From a virus (taxonomy: Duplodnaviria; Caudoviricetes), in IMG/VR virus record IMGVR_UViG_3300045747_000505: a stretch of DNA of 64,000 nucleotides; one strand, written 5' to 3'. Of the stretch, positions 17,757 to 58,983 are shown one piece after another. The translations under genes and the position numbers were made by a program. Position 1 is the stretch's first letter. Each line of letters begins with the position of its first letter. Under the pieces are notes generated by a model. The model worked only from the letters and a program-made list of their open reading frames with translations, had not been told where the DNA came from and searched no databases.

Positions 17757-17965
17757 CCTGGCTCGCAGACGTCTCCAAGGATCGCCCGACCGGCGATGCG
17801 CTCGACAAGGTCATGGCTCAACGCGCCAAGCTGATCGCGCAAATCGAAGCCCTCAAGGCCTCGCCGTGTGGCAAGTCTCAGTCTGCCATCAACGGTCGCC
17901 TCGAGGACCTCACCGCGCTGGCCAAAAAGGTCACCGCTATTGATCGCAAGATCGGAAGAACATGA
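17753..17965 (+). CDS. Hypothetical coiled-coil protein
   Basis: AAGGA RBS, GTGA overlap. Confidence 0.55.
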   Translation: MTWLADVSKDRPTGDALDKVMAQRAKLIAQIEALKASPCGKSQSAINGRLEDLTALAKKVTAIDRKIGRT

Positions 17966-18243
17966 CCTCAGCTACTGACTTCGCATCGCTTGACCTGCTT
18001 GACCCACCAGCCGTTGTGGCTCGTGGCGCCGTGCTGCCAGGCGTGCCGAAGCCACCAGCAGCACGGCGCGCTGTACCGAAGGTTCAAGACCCGCGCTTCC
18101 CGCACATTCGGTTCCTCAAGAACGAAGGTTCGCTGCTGCGCGATTTGAACGACCGAATCGGGCCACAGGTCATCGCGTTCATTCCAACCGTCGCCATCAT
18201 GGGCGGTGTCGTCTTCGTCGCTCGTCACTTTCTATTCGGCTAG
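17962..18243 (+). CDS. Hypothetical membrane protein (ends in TAG)
   Basis: C-terminal TM; TAG is in frame with the next ATG. Confidence 0.6.
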   Translation: MTSATDFASLDLLDPPAVVARGAVLPGVPKPPAARRAVPKVQDPRFPHIRFLKNEGSLLRDLNDRIGPQVIAFIPTVAIMGGVVFVARHFLFG

Positions 18244-18246
18244 CCA

Positions 18247-18630
18247 ATGGCACGCTCCAATCTCACCGTCGCGCAGAAGGTCGTTGTCGTGGCGGCGATC
18301 GTCACGGTGTTTCTCACGCTGTTCGGCTGGTTCGTTCTTTGGTGGGATGGTATCTTCACCGGACTGAACCACTTCGGTCTGCCGTGGTGGGCAGCGCTGC
18401 TCTGTCTCATCGTGCTCTTTGTTCTGCTACCACGCCTCACAAGCTTCTGTTGCATGCTGCTTGGCGTCTGGACCGCCTACGTCCTTTGGGACTGGTGGTT
18501 CATCTTCGCGGTCTCGCTCTACATGCCAACCATCGCGACCTTCATTAAAGGTCTCGTCTTCAGTCTCATTGTCGCAGTCTTTGAAGTACTGCTAACCGTC
18601 GTGACCATCGTCTTTGGAAACAAATCATGA
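18247..18630 (+). CDS. Multi-pass membrane protein
   Basis: 3-4 hydrophobic segments. Confidence 0.7.
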   Translation: MARSNLTVAQKVVVVAAIVTVFLTLFGWFVLWWDGIFTGLNHFGLPWWAALLCLIVLFVLLPRLTSFCCMLLGVWTAYVLWDWWFIFAVSLYMPTIATFIKGLVFSLIVAVFEVLLTVVTIVFGNKS

Positions 18631-27047: not shown

Positions 27048-27271
27048 ACCTCTTCGACCTCTTTGAAGAACTGTGGCCTGGCGAACCGCTTGATGCCTAT
27101 GATGAGCTGCTGTGGCTCACGCCCTACCCATGCGCTGACGTCGCCACCATCGAGCAGCGACTGCGTGAGTTTCGTGCTGCCAACGGCCCGGTCATCGCCA
27201 AAGCCATCAATGTCGGCTACGCTGCGCTGCCAACCAGCATTCATCCCGAACCTAAAAACGACCCGACCTGA
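27044..27271 (+). CDS. Hypothetical protein
   Basis: AGGAG RBS, ATGA overlap. Confidence 0.55.
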   Translation: MNLFDLFEELWPGEPLDAYDELLWLTPYPCADVATIEQRLREFRAANGPVIAKAINVGYAALPTSIHPEPKNDPT

Positions 27272-34558: not shown

Positions 34559-37500
34559 ATGACAAATCGCAAGAAGTTTCACTCGAGCCCAGTCGCTCTG
34601 GCCGTCGGAACTTTCGTTGCGCTCACCACCCTATCGGCTCAAGCCGGTCCGGGCTATGGTGACGCATACGATCTCAACAACGTCCCCTTCGTCGTTCAGT
34701 CCTACTTCGCCTCCAGCCCGAGCGGTGCTCGTCTCTGGACCGACGTGCAACCCGATGGCACCACCACCGGCGTCGCCGATCCTCTGACCGGTGCACCCGC
34801 TGGCTACAGCCCCGCCAACCGTCTCGCCTATCAGGCCGCTGTCGCTGCCATGTACCCCGGCGGCTATCCCGGCACCGGCAAGGCTCTGCGCAAGTTCGTC
34901 GACCCACTGCCGCTGCCCGGCCAGGTCGTGACCCTCGCTGATGGCGTCACGAAGAAGTCGCTGACCGTCGCGTCGGCCATCAAGTGGGTGAACCCCGAGG
35001 GCGTCCTGACCGGTGACGACTACTACGAGATCGCCGTCGTCGAGTACAGCGAGAAGTTCCACAGCGACCTGCCGAAGGCTTCGACGCTGCGCGGCTACGT
35101 TCAGATCGACCACGTTGCATCGAACAGCGCTGGTGCCACCACGCTGCCTGGCTCCAAGAACCTGGCCCTCTACTACCCGAACAGCTCCGGCGTTGTCGCC
35201 TTCGCAGCCACCGACGTGGTGCCAGCCGATGCCAAGCCGATCATGATCGGTCAGACCGACGCCAACGGCAAGCTGACCGGCGTTCAAGTTCAAGCCCGCG
35301 TCTTCGAGGCACCGCACTACCTCGGTGGTTCGATCGCCGCTACTCAGAACGTCCCCGTTCGCCTCAAGTTCCTGAACCTGCTCCCAGTCGGCCGTGCCAC
35401 GCTGGACGTCAATGGCAAGGTCATCGCCCGCAACGGCGACCTGTTCCTGCCAGTCGACCCGTCAATCGCTGGTGCCGGCTTCGGTCCCGATGGCATGACG
35501 CAGTACACGCAGAACCGCGCCAACGTTCACCTTCACGGTGGCGACACGGCATGGATCAGCGATGGCACTCCGCACCAGTGGATCACGCCGGCCGGCGAAG
35601 CCGACGCAACCGTCGCTGGCTCGCTCGCCGCTGACCCGACCATCGACCCGACCATCCTCGGCAACTTCGTGCGCGGTGTCAGCGCCGTCAACGTGCCGGA
35701 CATGAACGACCCGGGCGCTGGCGCCCAGACACTGTACTTCCCGAACGGCCAATCGGCCCGCTTCGAGTGGTATCACGACCACTCGCTCGGCATCACACGC
35801 CTGAACGTGATGGCCGGTATCGCCGCCGGCTACTTCCTCACCGACGCCGTCGAAGCCGACCTCATCGCTCGCAAGGTCATCCCCGATGGCGCTCACACGC
35901 TGCCGCTGGTGCTGCAAGAGAAGTCCTTCGTGCCCGCCGACATCGCGCTGCAAGACGCTCGCTGGGATACGGCCGCTTGGGGTTCCAATGGCGACCTGTG
36001 GTACCCGCACGTCTATGAGACCGTGCAAGATCCGGGTCAAGCGACCAACTTCAACGCGGTTGGTCGTTGGCACTGGGGTCCGTGGTTCTGGCCTTCGTTC
36101 CCGTCGCTGTACAACCTGCCGACCGGCGTCTATGGTGACGTGACCACCGTGCCCGAAGCCTGGGGTGATACCGCGCTCGTCAATGGCGTGGCCTACCCGA
36201 CCGTGGCCGTCGACCCGACGGCCTATCGTCTGCGCATCCTCAACGCGTCCAACGACCGCTTCTTCACGTTCAACATGTTCGTGGCAGACAGCACCGTGAC
36301 GGCCGATGACGGCCGCACCAACACCGAAGTCAAGATGGTGCCTGTCAACTCGTGGACCACGCTGTGCGCCCCCGGTGTGACGAAGTCTGACGGCGTCTGC
36401 ACGCCCGATACCTGGTCCACCGACGTCTATGGCCACAACGGCGGCGTCCCCGATGCCACCACACAAGGCCCGACCTTCTATCAGATCGCATCTGAAGGTG
36501 GTCTGCTGCCTGGCGTTGCGACCAAGGACTCGATGCCCGTCTCGTACCTGCTCGACAAGGGTCGTGCCGCCGTGCTGAACGTCGACTACGGCGCCTCCGG
36601 CCTGCACCTCGGCAACGCCGAACGTGCCGATGGCATCGTCGACTTCTCGGCCTACGCTGGCAAGACGCTGATCGTGTACAACGACTCTGGCGCTCCCGTC
36701 CCGGCCGCCGACCCGCGCAACGAGTACTTCACCGGCTACGGCGACAACTCGGCCACTGGCGGCGCTGAAGACACGCGTCCTGGCTACGGCCCGAACACAC
36801 GCACGCTGATGCAGATCGTGGTTCGTCCGACGGCCATCGGCCCGGTTGCTGCCCCGCTCAACAAGGCTGCACTCGACGCTGAAATCAAGACCGCCTACAA
36901 GGCTTCGCAACCGGCACCCGTCGTCGCTCAGTCCGCCTACAACGGCGCGCTCGGCACCACGTGGACCGACACCAAGGCCTTCGCCTCGATCTACACCGGC
37001 TCGCTCAAGTCGCCAACGTTCGACTTCGTGCCCGGCAGCCTGATCCCAGCGCTGTTCAACTCGATCCTCGTGTCCAACATGGGTGCCGGCTATCTGACGC
37101 CGCCCGATGTCACGCTGACCGGTGGTGGCGGTACTGGCGCAACGGCCACCGCATCGCTGAAGATCGACAAGCTGCACGTCGTCAATGGTGGCAGCGGCTA
37201 CACCGTCGCTCCGACCGTGACCATCACGTCGCTCGGCAAGGGCTCTGGTGCTGGCGCTACGACCACGCTGAAGGTGAACGCGATCAAGATCACCGCTGGT
37301 GGTGCTGGCTACAGCAGCACGAAGCCGCCGGTCGTGACGTTCGCCAAGCCGTCCGGCTTCACGCTCGCCGCTGATGGCCGCACTCGCGTCCCTGGTGTTC
37401 AGGCAACTGGCACCGCCGTCGTGAGCACCACTGGCACGATCACTGGCATCACCGTGACGAACGCCGGCTCTGGCTACGCTTCGGCTCCGACCGTGACCTT

Positions 37501-39313
37501 CTCCAGCGTCGGCACCACCGGCACTGGCGCTCGTGCCACGACCACCGGCTCCGTCGCCGCGCTGCTGCTGAACATCCCTGATCCGCTGAACCCTGGCACT
37601 GCTGGCGGTGGTGGCTACGACAACCTCGTGACCCTCGCAACCGTGGACGCTACCTCGACCGTCGCTGGTCTGACCATCACGCTGACCGCTCCGCCGGTTG
37701 GTGGTGTGACTGCTACGGCTGGTGCGACTGGCAAGGTCTTCGACATCACCTTCACGAACCTCGGCAAGAACTACACCTCGGCTCCGACCGTGGCTGTGAC
37801 GGCTCCCGTCGCCAACACCGTGCTCGCCGCACCGCTGGTCACAGCAGCTGCGTCGACCGATACGGCCGCTGGTGTTCCGCAAGGTCGAATCCTCGTCAAG
37901 ACCAAGGCGATTCAGGAGCTCTTCGAGCCGACCTACGGCCGACTCAACGCTACGCTGGGTGTCGAGATTCCGTTCACTAGCGCGCTGACACAGACGACGA
38001 TCCCGCTGGGTTACGTCGATCAGGCGACCGAAGAATTCGCCGACGGTGAAGTTCAGATCTGGAAGATCACGCACAACGGTGTGGACAGCCACCCAGTGCA
38101 CTTCCACCTGCTCAACGTGCAGCTGATCAACCGCGTGGGTTGGGACAACTTCGTCACGCCGCCCGAGCCGAACGAGTTGGGCTGGAAGGAGACGGTCAAG
38201 ATGTCGCCGCTGGAAGACGTGATCGTCGCTGTTCGCGCCAAGAAGCCGACGCTGCCCGGCTTCGGTCTGCCGAACAGCCAGCGCCTGCAAGATCCGACGC
38301 AGCCCGAAGGTGCGATGACCGGCTTCACGCAGATCGACCCGAACACTGGTCTGCCGGCTCCGATGACCAACATGTTCGTCGACTACGGTTGGGAATACGT
38401 CTGGCACTGCCACATCCTCGGCCACGAAGAAAACGACTTCATGCGCGCCATCAAGTTCAACGCCAACGAAGCGATGCCAATCGCCGGCGTGCTGACTGGT
38501 GTGCAAGCTGGTTCGACCGTGGCGCTGAACTGGACCGACCTGTCGCAGACCGAGTTCATGTACCGCGTCGAGCGTGCTGCCCCTGGTGGTACGGTCTGGA
38601 CGGTGCTCGACAACCTGCTGGCCAACAGCACGAAGTACGTCGACCTCACGGCCGGTCTCAACGCGAACTACGACTACCGCGTCGTCGCAGTGGGTCAAGC
38701 TGGTGAAGTCGCTTCGAACGTGGTCGCAGTTCGCTCGATGCCGTCTGGTCTCGGTGCTCTGACCTTCGTGCCGCGCACCATTGCTCCAGTGACTCTCAAC
38801 TGGGGTGACGCAACCGCCGAGACGTCGTATCAAGTTCAACGTGCCGTCAGCGGTTCGACGAACTTCGCTACGATCGCCACGCTGGCTGCCGATGCCGTGA
38901 CCTACACCGACAACACCGCCGTGGGCACCACGGCCTACGTCTACCGTGTCATCGCGCTGAACGCCTCGGGTCAAGCCGTGTCGAACACCGTCAATGTGCC
39001 GATCGTGCCGCTAGCTCTGCCTGGCGCTCCGAGAAGCCTGAATGGCAACAAGACGAACATCAACGCTTCGATGGCTCGCATCACGTTGACCTGGCGCGCT
39101 CCGACCACCGGTGGTGCAGTGGCTTCGTACATCATTCAGTCGTGCTCCGGCCCGACGAACTGCACGAACTTCACGCAGCTTGCCACGACGGCGAACCTGA
39201 CCTACACAACCGGTCAAGTCAACCGTGGAACGCCGTTCAGCTTCCGCATCCAGGCGGTGAATGCCGCTGGCAAGTCGACGACGTTCAGCAACGTGTTCCG
39301 CGTCACACCGTAA
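34559..39313 (+). CDS. Giant secreted multicopper oxidase 2 (1584 aa; MofA-like putative Mn(II) oxidase) with C-terminal FN3 repeats
   Basis: Sec signal (AQA); Cu motifs [32 protein letters not shown]; about three FN3-like repeats (LNW...Y-V-R...Y-YRV-A). Confidence 0.92.
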
Positions 39314-53221: not shown

Positions 53222-53895
53222 TGCCAACCGCCCAGCTTCGCTCGCTGGCTGCCAAGTCAGACAAGACTCTTGGTGACCTCGAGCGCTACTGGGCAGACGC
53301 CAAGGTTGAAGCTCATCACAAGTTCAAGAAGAAGGACAAGCACTTCTGGGCCTACGTCGTCGGTATCGTCAAGCGCCGCGCTGGGCTGAGCGAAGAGGAC
53401 ATCAGCTTCAAGACCTATCTGCTCCTCATCGAGGACGACAAGGCGCACGGCAAGGCTCTCGAGCGAACAGGCTTCTGGGGCAAGGCTGGTGCGGGTTGTA
53501 TCATTTTAGCTCGGGACACGGGAAGAATCTGCCTGCCGAAGCGAAGCAAGGACGTGGAGCAACCACACACTTGGGGAACTTGGGGTGGCGCTATCGACGG
53601 AAGAGAGGCGCCTAAGGCCGCTGCAGAGCGCGAGGTCCGTGAGGAAGCTGGATATACAGGCAAGCTCGAAATCGTTCCCCTGTACGTTTATAAGCATCCC
53701 AGTGGCTTCACCTACCACAACTTCCTGGCCATCGTGGACAAGGAGTTCGAGCCAGAGCTGAACTGGGAAACGTCGACCTACCGTTGGTGCTCGCCAACGA
53801 AGCTGCCGTCGCCGCTGCACTTCGGTCTGAAGGGTCTGCTTGCCGACGCCGCAAGCTGGCAGAAGATCAAAGACGCTCAACCTAAAAAGACGTAG
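53221..53895 (+). CDS. Nudix hydrolase with N-terminal helical domain
   Basis: Nudix box GGAIDGREAPKAAAEREVREEAG. Confidence 0.88.
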   Translation: MPTAQLRSLAAKSDKTLGDLERYWADAKVEAHHKFKKKDKHFWAYVVGIVKRRAGLSEEDISFKTYLLLIEDDKAHGKALERTGFWGKAGAGCIILARDTGRICLPKRSKDVEQPHTWGTWGGAIDGREAPKAAAEREVREEAGYTGKLEIVPLYVYKHPSGFTYHNFLAIVDKEFEPELNWETSTYRWCSPTKLPSPLHFGLKGLLADAASWQKIKDAQPKKT

Positions 53896-53924
53896 CCTGA
53901 AGACTGAGACATAGAGTAAAATAC

Positions 53925-54256
53925 AGACATGGGTGCTACAGCCATTCTGTAGTGATTGTTGTAATTCGGAGCAAGTTGAAGGATTCTGGACGCGGGTTCG
54001 ATTCCCGCCAGGTCCACCACAAAACACATACCGCCGGCTGTAGAATTCGGCAACACCTTAGGGACGATCCACGTGGTGTGTGTTTTGTAATGGGCCTGAC
54101 CTGGTCTCGACAGGGTTACGGAGATGCGCACACGCAACACGAGAGTCGACCGACGTAATCGGCGAAAACACGCTAAGTGCAAACGAAGCAAACTTCCGTC
54201 TGGCTGCTTAATACCCAGCTCACGGTGAGGCTAACCACCTTATAAAGCAACGGTGA
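53925..54256 (+). ncRNA. ssrA: Circularly permuted (two-piece) tmRNA; tag ANEANFRLAA*
   Basis: 3' acceptor piece GCGGGTTCGATTCCCGC-CAGGTCC-A-CCA ends at 54019 and precedes the 5' piece GGGCCTGAC-CTGGTCTCGAC at 54092; G3.U70 pair; tag frame 54179-54211; outer ends approximate. Confidence 0.9.
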
Positions 54257-54282
54257 GGACAGGACACTTCGGTGTCCTGTCC
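54257..54282 (+). terminator. Hairpin after tmRNA coding piece
   Basis: GGACAGGACAC-TTCG-GTGTCCTGTCC. Confidence 0.75.
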
Positions 54283-54306: not shown

Positions 54307-54795
54307 ATGCGCAAGCTGCTCGCCGCTCTCATGCTCACCCTCTCGCTGGGCGCTGCTGCCCAGTCGGAGCCGCATGTTCAGATCGGCGCAGCAGACTTCA
54401 CGGTCTTCAAGGTCTATCCGAACTTTGCGCTGCTCTTCGACCGCGAGTCGATGCATGGTGATGCCAACACCGGCGACGCGGTGATGACGATCAAGATTCA
54501 CCTGAAGTCCCCAGACCCAAGGCTCGTGCCGAAGTTTCCGGTCAAGTTCCTCGTCAACACTCTCTTCATCGAGTGCGAGAAGGATCAAGTCACGGTGCTG
54601 GTCAGCCAGATGTATGACGATGAGAATGACCTCGTCGGCATTCGTCGATACTACCCGCCCATTTCGAACCCACACTCAGAAGGTGCGCCGGCCACTGAGG
54701 TCCTCGACTTCGCCTGCGCCTCGAATCCGAAGTACCCGAACAAGCGTAACACGCCTATAATTGTTACACCTGACGATGACCGGAATGGTGTATAA
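54307..54795 (+). CDS. Secreted protein (surface-adhesin-like small beta protein)
   Basis: Signal peptide MRKLLAALMLTLSLGAAA; two Cys. Confidence 0.75.
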   Translation: MRKLLAALMLTLSLGAAAQSEPHVQIGAADFTVFKVYPNFALLFDRESMHGDANTGDAVMTIKIHLKSPDPRLVPKFPVKFLVNTLFIECEKDQVTVLVSQMYDDENDLVGIRRYYPPISNPHSEGAPATEVLDFACASNPKYPNKRNTPIIVTPDDDRNGV

Positions 54796-54816
54796 TAGCC
54801 TCATGGAATCACAAAA

Positions 54817-54891
54817 GCGTCGTTAGCTCAATGGTAGAGTACGGGCCTCTAAAACCCAGGGTTATCGGTTCGATCCCGATACGACGCACCA
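54817..54891 (+). tRNA. tRNA with CUA anticodon (amber suppressor), tRNA-Lys-like body
   Basis: Acceptor GCGTCGT/ACGACGC-A-CCA, D-arm GCTC/GAGT, loop CT-CTA-AA (CTA 54849-54851), T-arm ATCGG-TTCGATC-CCGAT; anticodon stem has only 3 Watson-Crick pairs. Confidence 0.85.
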
Positions 54892-55617: not shown

Positions 55618-55764
55618 ACCTAAACAAATCGATGTACAAGTCCTAAGGACAGTGTACAATAGGAACTGTTGAGAAGCTCACAGTGGTGAGCAGTATCTTA
55701 GATAGTTGGCATAGACCGGGACCCCGTTGTCGCCCAGCCACAAACGACGACATCAACTAGTGAG

Positions 55765-56151
55765 ATGATCATGTAGATCCGCACTTCCAAAACCTACCTC
55801 TACGCAATCACACGCCGCGATCTCCCACTCGCGCAACAGGCTGTTCAAGCTGGCCACGCCGCCATTGAGCACGCTTACCAACATGGTCGTCCGCACGATC
55901 ATCATCCGTCGTACATCAAGCTGACGACGCGAGACAAGGCCGCTCTTCTCGAGCTTCAGGCCACGCTTGCCACGCACGGCATTCAAACCGCAGAATTTCA
56001 CGAGCCATACAAAGCTTGGGGCCTCACCGCAATCGCCTGTCTTCTCGGCGAGGAACAACGCTGTCTGTTACGACAGTTACAGCTTTGGACCACGCAGAAT
56101 GCTCAGGTTCGTGATACAATGGACACATCAACCACTCGGAGTTTCTCATGA
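55765..56151 (+). CDS. Peptidyl-tRNA hydrolase type 2 (Pth2)-like protein with in-frame TAG at codon 4 (missed by the ORF track)
   Basis: ATG ATC ATG TAG ATC CGC...; KTYLYAITRRDLPLAQQAVQAGHAAIE...FHEPY...GLTAIA; TGA overlaps the next ATG. Confidence 0.75.
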
Positions 56152-56870: not shown

Positions 56871-57344
56871 ATGACCACCTTCACCATCATTCACCTCACG
56901 CCGGCCTCGAACAGGGACTGGAGCGGCGAAGATCAGAGCTACATCACTCAAGAAGCTCAGACCCGAATCGACATCACACGCGTCATCGAGCGCGCGGCCG
57001 ACTTCTGGATGGACGGCATCAAGAAGGCCGGCCATGAGAAGAACACGTTCATCCTCATCAACGGTCGCGAGCCCGAGGACTATCCCTACAACCAGGACGT
57101 GGACGTCAACGACTACCTCGACGATGACCCCTACACTCCCGAGGAGCTGGGCGACTACGCTACGCTTCGCGCCATTGTGAACGCAAAGGTCGACGACTGG
57201 AAGGCCGAGAAGGCCGCAGCTGAAGAAGCCGAACGTCAACGCCTCGCAAATCTGGCTGCTGCAAAGGCTCGTCAAATCGCTCAGATGCAGCGTGACAAGG
57301 ACGAAGCCGACTTTCAGCTGCTCAGGCGCAAGCTGGGCAAGTGA
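56871..57344 (+). CDS. Hypothetical protein with C-terminal coiled coil
   Basis: AAGGA RBS. Confidence 0.7.
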   Translation: MTTFTIIHLTPASNRDWSGEDQSYITQEAQTRIDITRVIERAADFWMDGIKKAGHEKNTFILINGREPEDYPYNQDVDVNDYLDDDPYTPEELGDYATLRAIVNAKVDDWKAEKAAAEEAERQRLANLAAAKARQIAQMQRDKDEADFQLLRRKLGK

Positions 57345-57397
57345 TCACAACCGTCCGCGCACTTCTAATAGCATTAGTTGGCAAATAAGGAATTGCA

Positions 57398-57490
57398 ATG
57401 ATCTAGGTAAACGCAGTCGCTCGTGGTCCTCCGAGGTTGAATGACACATTCACGGTTCATTCACTTCACATTTCAAGGATCACATCATGA
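57398..57490 (+). other. Amber-interrupted leader ORF (ATG ATC TAG ... TGA) coupled to the next gene
   Basis: AAGGA RBS at 57387; read-through frame has no other stop until TGA 57488-57490, which overlaps ATG 57487. Confidence 0.55.
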
Positions 57491-57873
57491 CCAAGCTCTA
57501 CGACAATCTCTACGCCGAGTTCTCCTTCACCTCCCGTGAGGAGTATCTCGAGGCATCCAAGCGCTGGAAGGCTGACTACGCTCAGCGCTCAGCGAACATT
57601 CGCACCACCCGTGCCGCCTTCAAGGCCGCGCAGCGTGAGGTCTCCAAGGCCGAGCTCGCGTTCGACGGCAAGCCGCTCTGGCACCTCGACTACGACAACC
57701 CAGCGCGCAAGGCTTGGGTTGCAGCGTCCAAGCCGATGGCCGAAGCCATGTACGCCCTTCGGGATCAGCGTCGCATGGCAGTGCTCATGCTCGAGGTTCG
57801 CTCTGGCATGAAGTGCGAGGCTGGCAATCAGCGTGAGCTGCGTCTTCAGGACGAAGCGCTGAAAGCGGCTTGA
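57487..57873 (+). CDS. Helical phage protein (SREEYL...WKADY type)
   Basis: AAGGA RBS; amphipathic helices. Confidence 0.75.
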   Translation: MTKLYDNLYAEFSFTSREEYLEASKRWKADYAQRSANIRTTRAAFKAAQREVSKAELAFDGKPLWHLDYDNPARKAWVAASKPMAEAMYALRDQRRMAVLMLEVRSGMKCEAGNQRELRLQDEALKAA

Positions 57874-57952
57874 CATAGGACAACCTTGTGATAAATACTG
57901 ACGGTCGAACCTAAACTCGACCGTCAGTACAACTAATCTCAAGGACGCTCCT

Positions 57953-58620: not shown

Positions 58621-58665
58621 CAACCCATCGTGTTAAAGAGAGCCCTCACACAATAGGGCTCTCAC

Positions 58666-58983
58666 ATGAAACGCACTCCAAACAAATCCCCTAATCACAA
58701 CCAACTTTGGTATCGTGCGCAGTTGACGCCCATGTCGACCTCGCTATTTACCGACGCTTTTTATCCGAAACCGAAACGAGGTTCAGGCGCACAATACGTG
58801 TTCTTCACCCAGATTGACGTGACACCAACCACGCACAAGGTTATCTTGGCCTCACGCCTGGAAGAATCCGGTGTTAGAATGGTGACACACGAACTGGCAA
58901 CGAGAATCCTCATCCCGAAGGAAAAAGCGACCAAGGCTGAAATGGCAAAACTGAACGAACTGACCGCAAAACTGAAAGTCTGA
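58666..58983 (+). CDS. Hypothetical protein
   Basis: Follows TATAAT promoter; start lies in or next to hairpin GAGAGCCCT/AGGGCTCTC. Confidence 0.6.
   Translation: MKRTPNKSPNHNQLWYRAQLTPMSTSLFTDAFYPKPKRGSGAQYVFFTQIDVTPTTHKVILASRLEESGVRMVTHELATRILIPKEKATKAEMAKLNELTAKLKV

Follow-up and report, generated by a model that had tools for sequence, protein, structure and literature searches.

A 64,000-nucleotide (nt) stretch of DNA from an uncultured phage (Duplodnaviria, Caudoviricetes; IMG/VR record IMGVR_UViG_3300045747_000505), hereafter the window, contains a gene for a 128-amino-acid (aa) protein that is preceded by a short leader (57398-57490) whose start codon is followed, one codon later, by an amber stop codon. 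Comparison with related sequences indicates that this amber mini-open reading frame (mini-ORF) is a conserved, selected feature. We give an even chance to the reading that the leader is an amber-gated ribosome-arrest leader, in which read-through of the UAG would lead to a stall at an Arg-Gly-Pro-Pro (RGPP) motif and the stalled ribosome would unmask the downstream start. The basis of this proposal is sequence features, conservation and statistics computed from the DNA, together with predicted folds, and no experiment. The leader with all its parts, the repeated element just before it, the 128-aa gene, and the transfer RNA (tRNA), transfer-messenger RNA (tmRNA) and Pth2-like genes discussed below lie on the + strand.

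The amber mini-ORF and its conservation

The leader has a Shine-Dalgarno (SD) sequence, AAGGA (57387-57391), located 6 nt before ATG 57398, which is followed by ATC (57401) and TAG (57404-57406). Direct reading and translation bore out this AAGGA and mini-ORF (ATG ATC TAG, 57398-57406), first pointed out in an earlier description of the same DNA (the original prediction), as well as its statement that the read-through frame closes on the start codon of the next gene. Decoding of the TAG gives a frame of 30 codons (57398-57490), which translates as M-I-X-V-N-A-V-A-R-G-P-P-R... and ends at TGA 57488-57490, overlapping ATG 57487-57489 of the 128-aa gene as ATGA. The usual ribosome-binding site of this phage's genes is AAGGA at a distance of 5–8 nt, and the mini-ORF therefore stands in a normal initiation context, with the motif and spacing found at bona fide gene starts of the window. 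Nine ATG-(0–2 codons)-TAG strings occur on the + strand of the window, a good SD being present only at the leader and at the start of the Pth2-like gene.

Relatives of the 128-aa protein were sought among 5.8 billion proteins; two were found, with 88% and 66–70% identity, and their contigs were compared with the window. Contig L001 has the same layout with ATG AAA TAG (893-901), in which two substitutions alter the middle codon and leave ATG and TAG intact. Contigs L002 and L003 have AAGGTG, a 4-nt spacer and ATG TAG (L002: 2472-2477), within an intergenic region that is ~50% identical to that of the window and contains indels. The distance from the leader ATG to the gene ATG is 89 nt in the window vs. 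80 nt in L002, which places both in the same frame, and the overlap of the read-through stop with the gene start is the same in L001 and L002; the L002 frame meets one further TAG, right after PPP, 10 codons in. The leader stop is always TAG in the three lineages, despite the differing middle codon and SD context. Metagenome contigs aligned to the window carried window-type and L001-type leaders only, none of them with the ATG or the TAG lost.

When each intergenic region was shuffled with dinucleotide composition preserved, ATG-(0/1 codon)-TAG arose in ~3% of shuffles, falling to 0.1–0.3% with an SD and to 0.03–0.05% with an SD and a frame open to ATGA. Because the amber leader is kept across diverged relatives, rare in shuffles, and intact in metagenome contigs, we take it to be real and under selection. 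Identity between the window and L001 is mosaic, and the 3′ half of the leader falls in a long near-identical block, where conservation between these two is uninformative. The fourth-base context of the gating TAGs and of TAGs at gene ends was also considered, and was left unused with too few cases.

The RGPP motif, the hairpin and the proposed mechanism

In the read-through frame only, CGT GGT CCT CCG (57422-57433) encodes R-G-P-P, a putative ribosome-arrest core. The interval from the TAG to this motif holds no start codon, hence RGPP can be translated only after UAG read-through. The RGPP codons of L001 (917-928) are identical to those of the window, and in L002 (2487-2498) they are CGC GGT CCC CCT, the three differences over 12 nt all being third-position and synonymous. 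The motif lies exactly 65 nt from the gene ATG in both lineages, and the peptide downstream of it is not conserved. Six-frame translation of the 64-kb window gives three R[AG]PP strings, two of which are antisense to genes; apart from the leader's, the + strand contains no RGPP or RAPP, and in L001 and L002 no frame has one outside the leader. For R[AG]PP to fall in the leader frame by chance, the calculated probability is 1.5e-4 to 4.5e-4.

RGPP is reached five codons past the UAG in the window and three in L002, and the chain at the putative stall would be M-I-X-V-N-A-V-A-R-G-P or M-X-I-S-N-R-G-P, respectively. This chain of 8–11 residues has no N-terminal targeting signal or transmembrane segment and is too short to exit the ribosome tunnel. 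Among RAPP-like cores, RGPP gives the most robust arrest, is resistant to elongation factor P, and tolerates varied N-terminal contexts; in many bacterial proteomes no other tetrapeptide is avoided as strongly, and it is overrepresented close to the ends of small ORFs that precede diverse genes (PMC12992588). The stall state of RAPP-type arrest has been described (PMC10951233).

The SD of the 128-aa gene, AAGGA (57475-57479), is canonical and ideally spaced, and is predicted to be held in a stem. Most of it lies within AGGAUCAC (57476-57483), the 3′ strand, which pairs with the anti-SD strand GUGGUCCU (57423-57430) in both the minimum free energy (MFE) and centroid structures, with an inner hairpin (57433-57467) inside the SD/anti-SD stem. 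When the window, L001 and L002 were folded separately, each gave a paired SD in its MFE and centroid structures alike, with pairing probabilities of 0.78, 1.00, and 1.00, respectively. The L001 fold is that of the window, with anti-SD GUGGUCCU, and the L002 anti-SD differs, UCCUUAG (2498-2504) pairing with CUAAGGA (2539-2545). The T-to-C changes in the L002 RGPP codons abolish the window-type pairing, and the codons stay synonymous. The folding z-score of the L002 leader is -2.5.

With a ribosome modelled on the first TAG, the SD was still paired (0.69, 0.98, and 1.00 in the window, L001, and L002). With the ribosome at the Pro codons, the hairpin was removed and SD pairing dropped to 0.56, 0.54, and 0.44, the MFE going from -24 to -6/-8 kcal/mol, a loss of ~16–18 kcal/mol of structure. 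In both lineages, the anti-SD falls between about -7 and +12 nt relative to the stalled P site, inside the ribosome footprint, and the SD, 40–45 nt further on, is clear of a ribosome stalled at RGPP.

In the mechanism that we favor, ribosomes would initiate at ATG 57398 on the canonical AAGGA and meet the UAG at codon 3. Where the release factor wins, a dipeptide would be freed, the hairpin GUGGUCCU/AGGAUCAC would not be reached, and the SD would stay paired, leaving the gene poorly translated. Where the UAG is decoded, most plausibly by the phage tRNA with anticodon CUA (tRNA-CUA, 54817-54891), the ribosome would arrive five codons on at R-G-P-P and stall with its footprint over the anti-SD strand, freeing the SD for new ribosomes to initiate at ATG 57487. 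Ribosomes escaping the stall would stop at the UGA overlapping that ATG, where reinitiation is possible and out-of-frame entry into the gene would be avoided; in L002 they would stop at the second UAG, right after PPP. Four steps of this scheme we infer: that the tRNA is made and charged, that the UAG is read here, that RGPP stalls a ribosome carrying a chain of 8–11 residues, and that translation is held back by the hairpin. The ATGA ending of the read-through frame is real, though probably secondary. As an input, the amber step could sense time since infection through accumulation of the tRNA, the balance between the tRNA and release factor 1 (RF1), or the integrity of tRNAs under attack.

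The suppressor tRNA, the Pth2-like gene and their genomic setting

The tRNA-CUA gene, an amber suppressor by its anticodon, is located 2.5 kb upstream of the amber leader (ARAGORN; Rfam tRNA, 60.1 bits). It encodes its CCA end, and its acceptor, D arm, and T arm are regular; just 5′ of it, TGTATAAT (54789-54796) may be an extended -10-like promoter element. The CUCUAAA anticodon loop is common to this tRNA and the tRNA-CUA genes of phages XacN1, GAP32, BF, and RsoM2USA. XacN1 (L023, AP018399) has two tRNA-CUA genes in tandem (36047-36122 and 36130-36205), ~1 kb from its tmRNA (~37201-37621), so that the two kinds of gene are paired as in the window; ORF364 joins the Pth2-like domain of this phage to a longer protein and has no early TAG.

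The Pth2-like gene of the window (55771-56151), a candidate for the first amber-dependent target, opens ATG TAG (TAG 55774-55776), which puts UAG at codon 2, and no canonical in-frame start occurs 3′ of its TAG. Its product has no Pfam match at E<0.01 and weak PHROG matches of unknown function; in an Atlas feature search, 93 of the 100 nearest clusters carry PF01981 (score 0.94). The ATG TAG ATC opening is conserved in L002; of the metagenome variants, one has an in-frame 3-nt deletion just past the TAG and another opens ATG TCG TAG. Early amber codons recur in cultured phages, as detected by tblastn. The Pth2-like ORF of Serratia phage BF (L024, KY630187, ~286083-286094) opens ATG ACG CAC TAG and is unannotated, that of Cronobacter phage GAP32 (L027, JN882285) opens ATG GCA CAA TAG and is annotated only from an internal ATG, and that of Ralstonia phage RsoM2USA (L026, MG752970) opens ATG TTG TAG and is unannotated. 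A tRNA-CUA is present in all three (BF, ~289666-289741; GAP32, 293273-293345; RsoM2USA, ~55744-55821). Read from these sequences, the Pth2-like gene needs UAG decoding, and amber decoding appears to be a working part of the biology of this phage group, which makes UAG read-through in the leader credible, not proven.

Two further sequence features were observed in these phages. In its 5′ untranslated region (UTR), the Pth2-like gene has a hairpin showing compensatory changes, GCUCAC/GUGAGC in the window (55676-55700) vs. GCUACC/GGUAGC in L002 (~336-362), with a conserved AGUAUCU 3′ of it. RsoM2USA_92 ends ...ATG AAA TCG TAG (L076, 68259-68300) in frame with RsoM2USA_91, which starts 27 nt on; read-through would join the two, and this may be coincidence.

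The original prediction had grouped the leader and the Pth2-like gene as a small regulon in which amber read-through controls downstream translation. A small set of amber-dependent targets is indeed credible because of the conserved amber mini-ORF, the tRNA-CUA, and the UAG-requiring Pth2-like gene; the features that had been used to connect the two fell away. The shared 9-mer TAGTTGGCA, at 57375, belongs to a ~40-nt repeated element, and the copy at 55703, which resembles that element in the 9-mer alone, lacks a conserved counterpart in L002. The proposed common ATG-ATC opening did not survive comparison either: the first Pth2 ATG (55765) is lost in relatives, L002 reading GCG ATC ATG TAG and three metagenome variants having T>C at 55766, and the conserved start is ATG 55771 with TAG directly after. 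The 15-aa ORF before the leader exists (GTG 57341 to TAA 57386-57388), and its supposed role as a coupled ORF is at variance with its absence from L002 and its disruption in a copy of the element in another phage. As for read-through controlling translation, the likely actuator is RGPP arrest on the anti-SD strand, not simply termination-reinitiation at ATGA. The suggested scan for SD-ATG-N-TAG leaders gave only the Pth2 start and the leader with a good SD in the window, and no excess in RsoM2USA. The wider reading, which we hold tentatively and rate somewhat short of an even chance, is that the phage's own amber-suppressor tRNA would be a trans-acting translational activator of a small regulon, acting on the Pth2-like gene directly and on the 128-aa gene via a leader made up of a UAG lock, an RGPP actuator, and an SD hairpin.

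The window, a single strand-biased stretch with a G+C content of ~59%, comes from a large uncultured phage (source contig, 273.5 kb). Its DNA occurs in pond and wetland metagenomes, and its genes include DNA ligase, RNA ligase, and NAMPT. Its closest cultured relatives are the jumbo phages Burkholderia FLC9 and Xanthomonas XacN1, which are only distantly similar, and a scan of IMG/VR, a phage collection, and metagenome contigs revealed no close relative of the flanking proteins or DNA. Gene order over 53.9–57.9 kb is tmRNA, tRNA-CUA, Pth2-like gene, three small genes, and the amber leader with the 128-aa gene. The tmRNA (53884-54282; Rfam RF01850, 140.6 bits; permuted according to ARAGORN) is part of the same translation-related island. 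The 128-aa protein (gene 57487-57873) is predicted by AlphaFold2 to form a long helical hairpin (predicted local distance difference test score 91), with no significant match in the PDB and non-specific ones only. Pfam and PHROGs gave no function for it or its neighbors, and Atlas no usable match.

TAG is the terminal stop of ~3–5 of the ~60 window genes. Reading TAG as sense over the 64 kb alters one real gene, the Pth2-like gene, and the other genes are intact in code 11; this standard-code window thus holds one amber gene and one amber leader. Gene 17962-18243 stops at TAG, and, one codon on, the ATG of the next gene (18247) shares its frame (window 18241-18249); amber read-through at 18241-18243 would join two genes of 93 and 127 aa. 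At the other two plausible TAG-ending genes (53893 and 62806), read-through adds only 3–5 residues.

Other observations concern the surroundings of these genes. ATAAATA occurs seven times in the window (2827, 13032, 49739, 52427, 57891, 61441, and 61996), mostly shortly upstream of genes and usually with G/C-rich bases before it, and is similar to the late promoter of phage T4, TATAAATA. The occurrence at 57891, upstream of a DUF481-like outer-membrane-type gene (57953), is kept in L001. Gene 58666 has no visible SD, and an 8-bp hairpin stops 3 nt 5′ of its ATG (window 58630-58668). This hairpin is retained in L001 (2127-2166) and, with other sequence, in L002 (2966-3005); a TATAAT-like box lies ~30 nt upstream, and the in-frame upstream reading in L001 is GTG TCA TAG. 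A Logan contig from another uncultured phage (L004, SRR30574980, 451-1853) encodes an 89-aa protein homologous to the N-terminal half of the 157-aa protein upstream of the leader, directly preceding a T4-type RNA ligase gene. An N-terminal-domain homologue of the 157-aa protein stands in a different gene context, which has no leader.

Competing explanations and relation to known systems

The leader ATG is preceded by a ~40-nt intergenic element (57355-57394) of consensus CCGCGCAC-N4-AATAGCATTAGTTGSCAAATAAGGAAT, which contains TAGTTGGCA and the leader AAGGA and is marked by a spike of metagenome depth and loose contig ends. In metagenome contigs from wetland and freshwater, the element piles up between flanks of several kinds, and a 116-kb phage contig (G001, IMGVR_UViG_3300045747_000454) has three copies, at 27093-27119 (-), 69851-69889 (+), and 99070-99127 (-). 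Identity of the element across phages is 83–100%, in phages that have no other nucleotide similarity. Each G001 copy comes right after a gene stop codon and is followed by a hairpin, two of these being terminator-like, and one copy precedes an apparently ordinary gene start at the same spacing as in the window's leader. G001 has no tRNA, Pth2, or 128-aa homologue, and the element is the only part that it has in common with the window. Considered as a motif, TAGTTGGCA has 19 one-mismatch copies vs. 6.6 expected, mostly antisense in genes, which we took as codon bias. Promoter readings of TTGGCA...TTGCA were rejected by eye: for sigma-54 the GG-to-GC spacing is 3 nt too long, and for sigma-70 there is no -10 at 16–18 nt.

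Four other explanations of the leader were weighed. In pure translational coupling, the reading of the original prediction and one that we regard as unlikely, read-through ribosomes would translate all 30 codons of the leader, melt the hairpin in doing so, terminate at the UGA, and reinitiate at AUG 57487, with RGPP incidental or a mere pause. The frame is open to ATGA in all three lineages despite a 9-nt difference in length, and genes of this phage commonly join by ATGA overlaps, as coupling would have it. However, coupling requires a second UAG read-through in L002, 10 codons in, and it leaves unexplained an RGPP conserved with synonymous-only changes; the peptide after RGPP is not conserved, and the 128-aa gene owns a canonical SD at ideal spacing. 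A rather improbable alternative is that the mini-ORF acts without read-through, as a start-stop or two-codon minigene holding or recycling ribosomes, sensing RF1, or shedding peptidyl-tRNA like lambda bar. The bar minigenes of phage lambda read AUG AUA stop, which ATG ATC TAG resembles, and a Pth2-like gene is nearby; L002 moreover has a true start-stop, ATG TAG. Start-stop and upstream ribosome-binding-site elements are known regulators (PMC13285730). Yet the exclusive use of TAG, the conserved frame, and RGPP would go unexplained, and a ribosome modelled on the mini-ORF does not reach the hairpin. Since L002 has no sense codon after ATG, peptidyl-tRNA drop-off cannot be the conserved function.

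The remaining two explanations start from the repeated element. Its presence, SD and 9-mer included, before a hairpin at each of three sites in another phage, two of them terminator-like, would fit an RNA-only role, in which the ~40-nt element is a promoter or a 3′/5′ UTR signal, the hairpin stabilizes the mRNA or tunes translation, and ATG...TAG and RGPP are by-products; the block CGYGGUCCYCC also partly overlaps the window anti-SD. The T-to-C changes in L002, which break the window-type pairing with the codons still synonymous, speak against this, as do the other element copies, which have no following ATG...TAG, and the L002 mini-ORF, kept or re-created in a different context 24 nt further from the element. 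We judge an RNA-only role improbable, too. That the leader has no function, being a fossil gene start that mosaic recombination put behind the repeated element and descent retained, seems very unlikely to us: the G001 element with a seemingly normal gene start at the same spacing and the mosaic identity between window and L001 speak for it, but in L002 the intergenic region is ~50% diverged with indels, yet SD, ATG, TAG, frame, RGPP, and an SD-sequestering stem are all kept.

Several points weigh against amber-gated arrest itself. No RNA sequencing run containing this DNA was found, and the leader's SD is part of a repeated element that may itself be a promoter, a UTR signal, or a small RNA. 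The window hairpin is thermodynamically unexceptional (z = -0.65 to -1.1), and SD pairing of the 128-aa gene (0.72), though high, is no outlier among window gene starts. Known RAPP/RGPP arrest peptides are longer nascent chains than the 8–11 residues here, the literature consulted documents no arrest with so short a chain, and L002 has the second in-frame TAG right after PPP. The leader-bearing lineages that are effectively independent number only two (window/L001 vs. L002/L003), the L001, L002, and L003 contigs are too short to show whether a tRNA-CUA is present, and remote homologues of the 128-aa gene number ~100, of which the two loci inspected both have no leader. In the RsoM2USA genome, SD-ATG-(0–3 codons)-TAG is not in excess over TAA/TGA controls, the single clear early-amber gene being the Pth2-like one, and no R[AG]PP leader gated by an amber codon occurs. 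Finally, in the anticodon stem of the window tRNA-CUA (54843-54859), just three G-C pairs stand between the mismatches C27.A43 and C31.A39; these look like a family trait, not decay, because XacN1 tRNA-CUA genes have analogous A.C and C.A mismatches and a three-pair anticodon stem.

The amber-gated leader that we favor resembles known arrest leaders in its parts. RAPP/RGPP-type arrest peptides include ApdA, ApdP, the RAGP of SecM, and the RAPP/RGPP upstream ORFs (uORFs) of Streptomyces lividans (PMC7897499, PMC10951233, PMC12992588). As in these, in silico analysis of the phage leader gives a small co-directional upstream ORF, an R-[AG]-P-P core, and an SD in a stem that a stalled ribosome would open. 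Unlike the phage leader, they are secreted or membrane monitoring substrates of 50–300 aa, whose stall is relieved by pulling of the nascent chain; the phage leader is not a monitoring substrate because its chain has 8–11 residues and no targeting signal, and its regulated step would be the passing of a UAG 0–1 codons after the start. The likeness to the ermCL/ermC and cat leaders lies in a short leader ORF where a stalled ribosome remodels a hairpin hiding the downstream SD; there, however, the input is an antibiotic in the ribosome tunnel, whereas the presumed input of the phage leader is amber suppression. The overlap of an upstream-frame stop with the downstream start in the window, L001, and L002 is that of ATGA translational coupling. 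The layout of lambda bar minigenes (SD, AUG, one sense codon, stop) is shared by ATG ATC TAG in the window and ATG AAA TAG in L001 but not by the ATG TAG of L002 and L003, and is therefore not the conserved feature.

On the side of suppression, the window phage, like stop-codon-recoded phages, encodes a suppressor tRNA for a stop codon. Those phages have code-change modules in which a suppressor tRNA and in-frame stops are proposed to time chosen genes (Borges et al., bioRxiv 10.1101/2021.08.26.457843). They have in-frame stops in 26–71% of genes and a low code-11 coding density, whereas the window phage uses the standard code and its amber sits in a regulatory uORF, not in a protein; since only one gene changes when TAG is read, it fails as a recoded phage. 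Its tRNA-CUA with the CUCUAAA loop is like the orphan tRNAs of XacN1 (where they lie beside a tmRNA) and RsoM2USA, phages of a distantly related type. The papers on XacN1 (PMC5852040) and RsoM2USA (PMC8504454) identified no target for the suppressor tRNAs, unlike the window phage, in which two candidate amber targets are visible. Synthetic amber-suppressor switches (PMC7969014, PMC6412442) likewise combine a UAG near the start of an ORF with an inducible suppressor tRNA for tight translational control, but these are engineered, with the UAG inside the target protein itself.

Gating of a small number of rare-codon genes by the supply of one decoding factor is familiar from the tRNA-Leu(UAA) gene bldA and its TTA-codon regulon in Streptomyces and from prfB, which is autoregulated through an in-frame UGA. 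The codon read by the bldA tRNA is a sense codon, whereas prfB relies on frameshifting and responds to a release factor; neither has an arrest leader. In the literature, we found no account of a UAG 0–1 codons into an arrest leader in a standard-code phage with a matching tRNA; the nearest published work that we found concerns the recoding of whole genomes (Borges et al.), suppressor tRNAs of the orphan kind, and amber switches of synthetic origin. The parts are known, namely RAPP/RGPP leaders that unmask an SD and phage suppressor tRNAs, and their combination is unpublished so far as we found.

If correct, the proposal would describe a natural sensor of stop-codon read-through, a kind of bacterial or phage riboregulation for which we found no published precedent. 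The RAPP/RGPP family, recently shown to occur widely ahead of diverse genes, would then include a member whose input is stop-codon read-through in place of nascent-chain pulling, and gene switches controlled by tRNAs would have a compact natural part to draw on. In standard-code jumbo phages, the orphan suppressor tRNAs would gain a regulatory purpose, with the arrest leader and the amber-gated Pth2-like gene as concrete clients. This suggests that standard-code phages use suppression as a regulatory signal rather than as a change of code.

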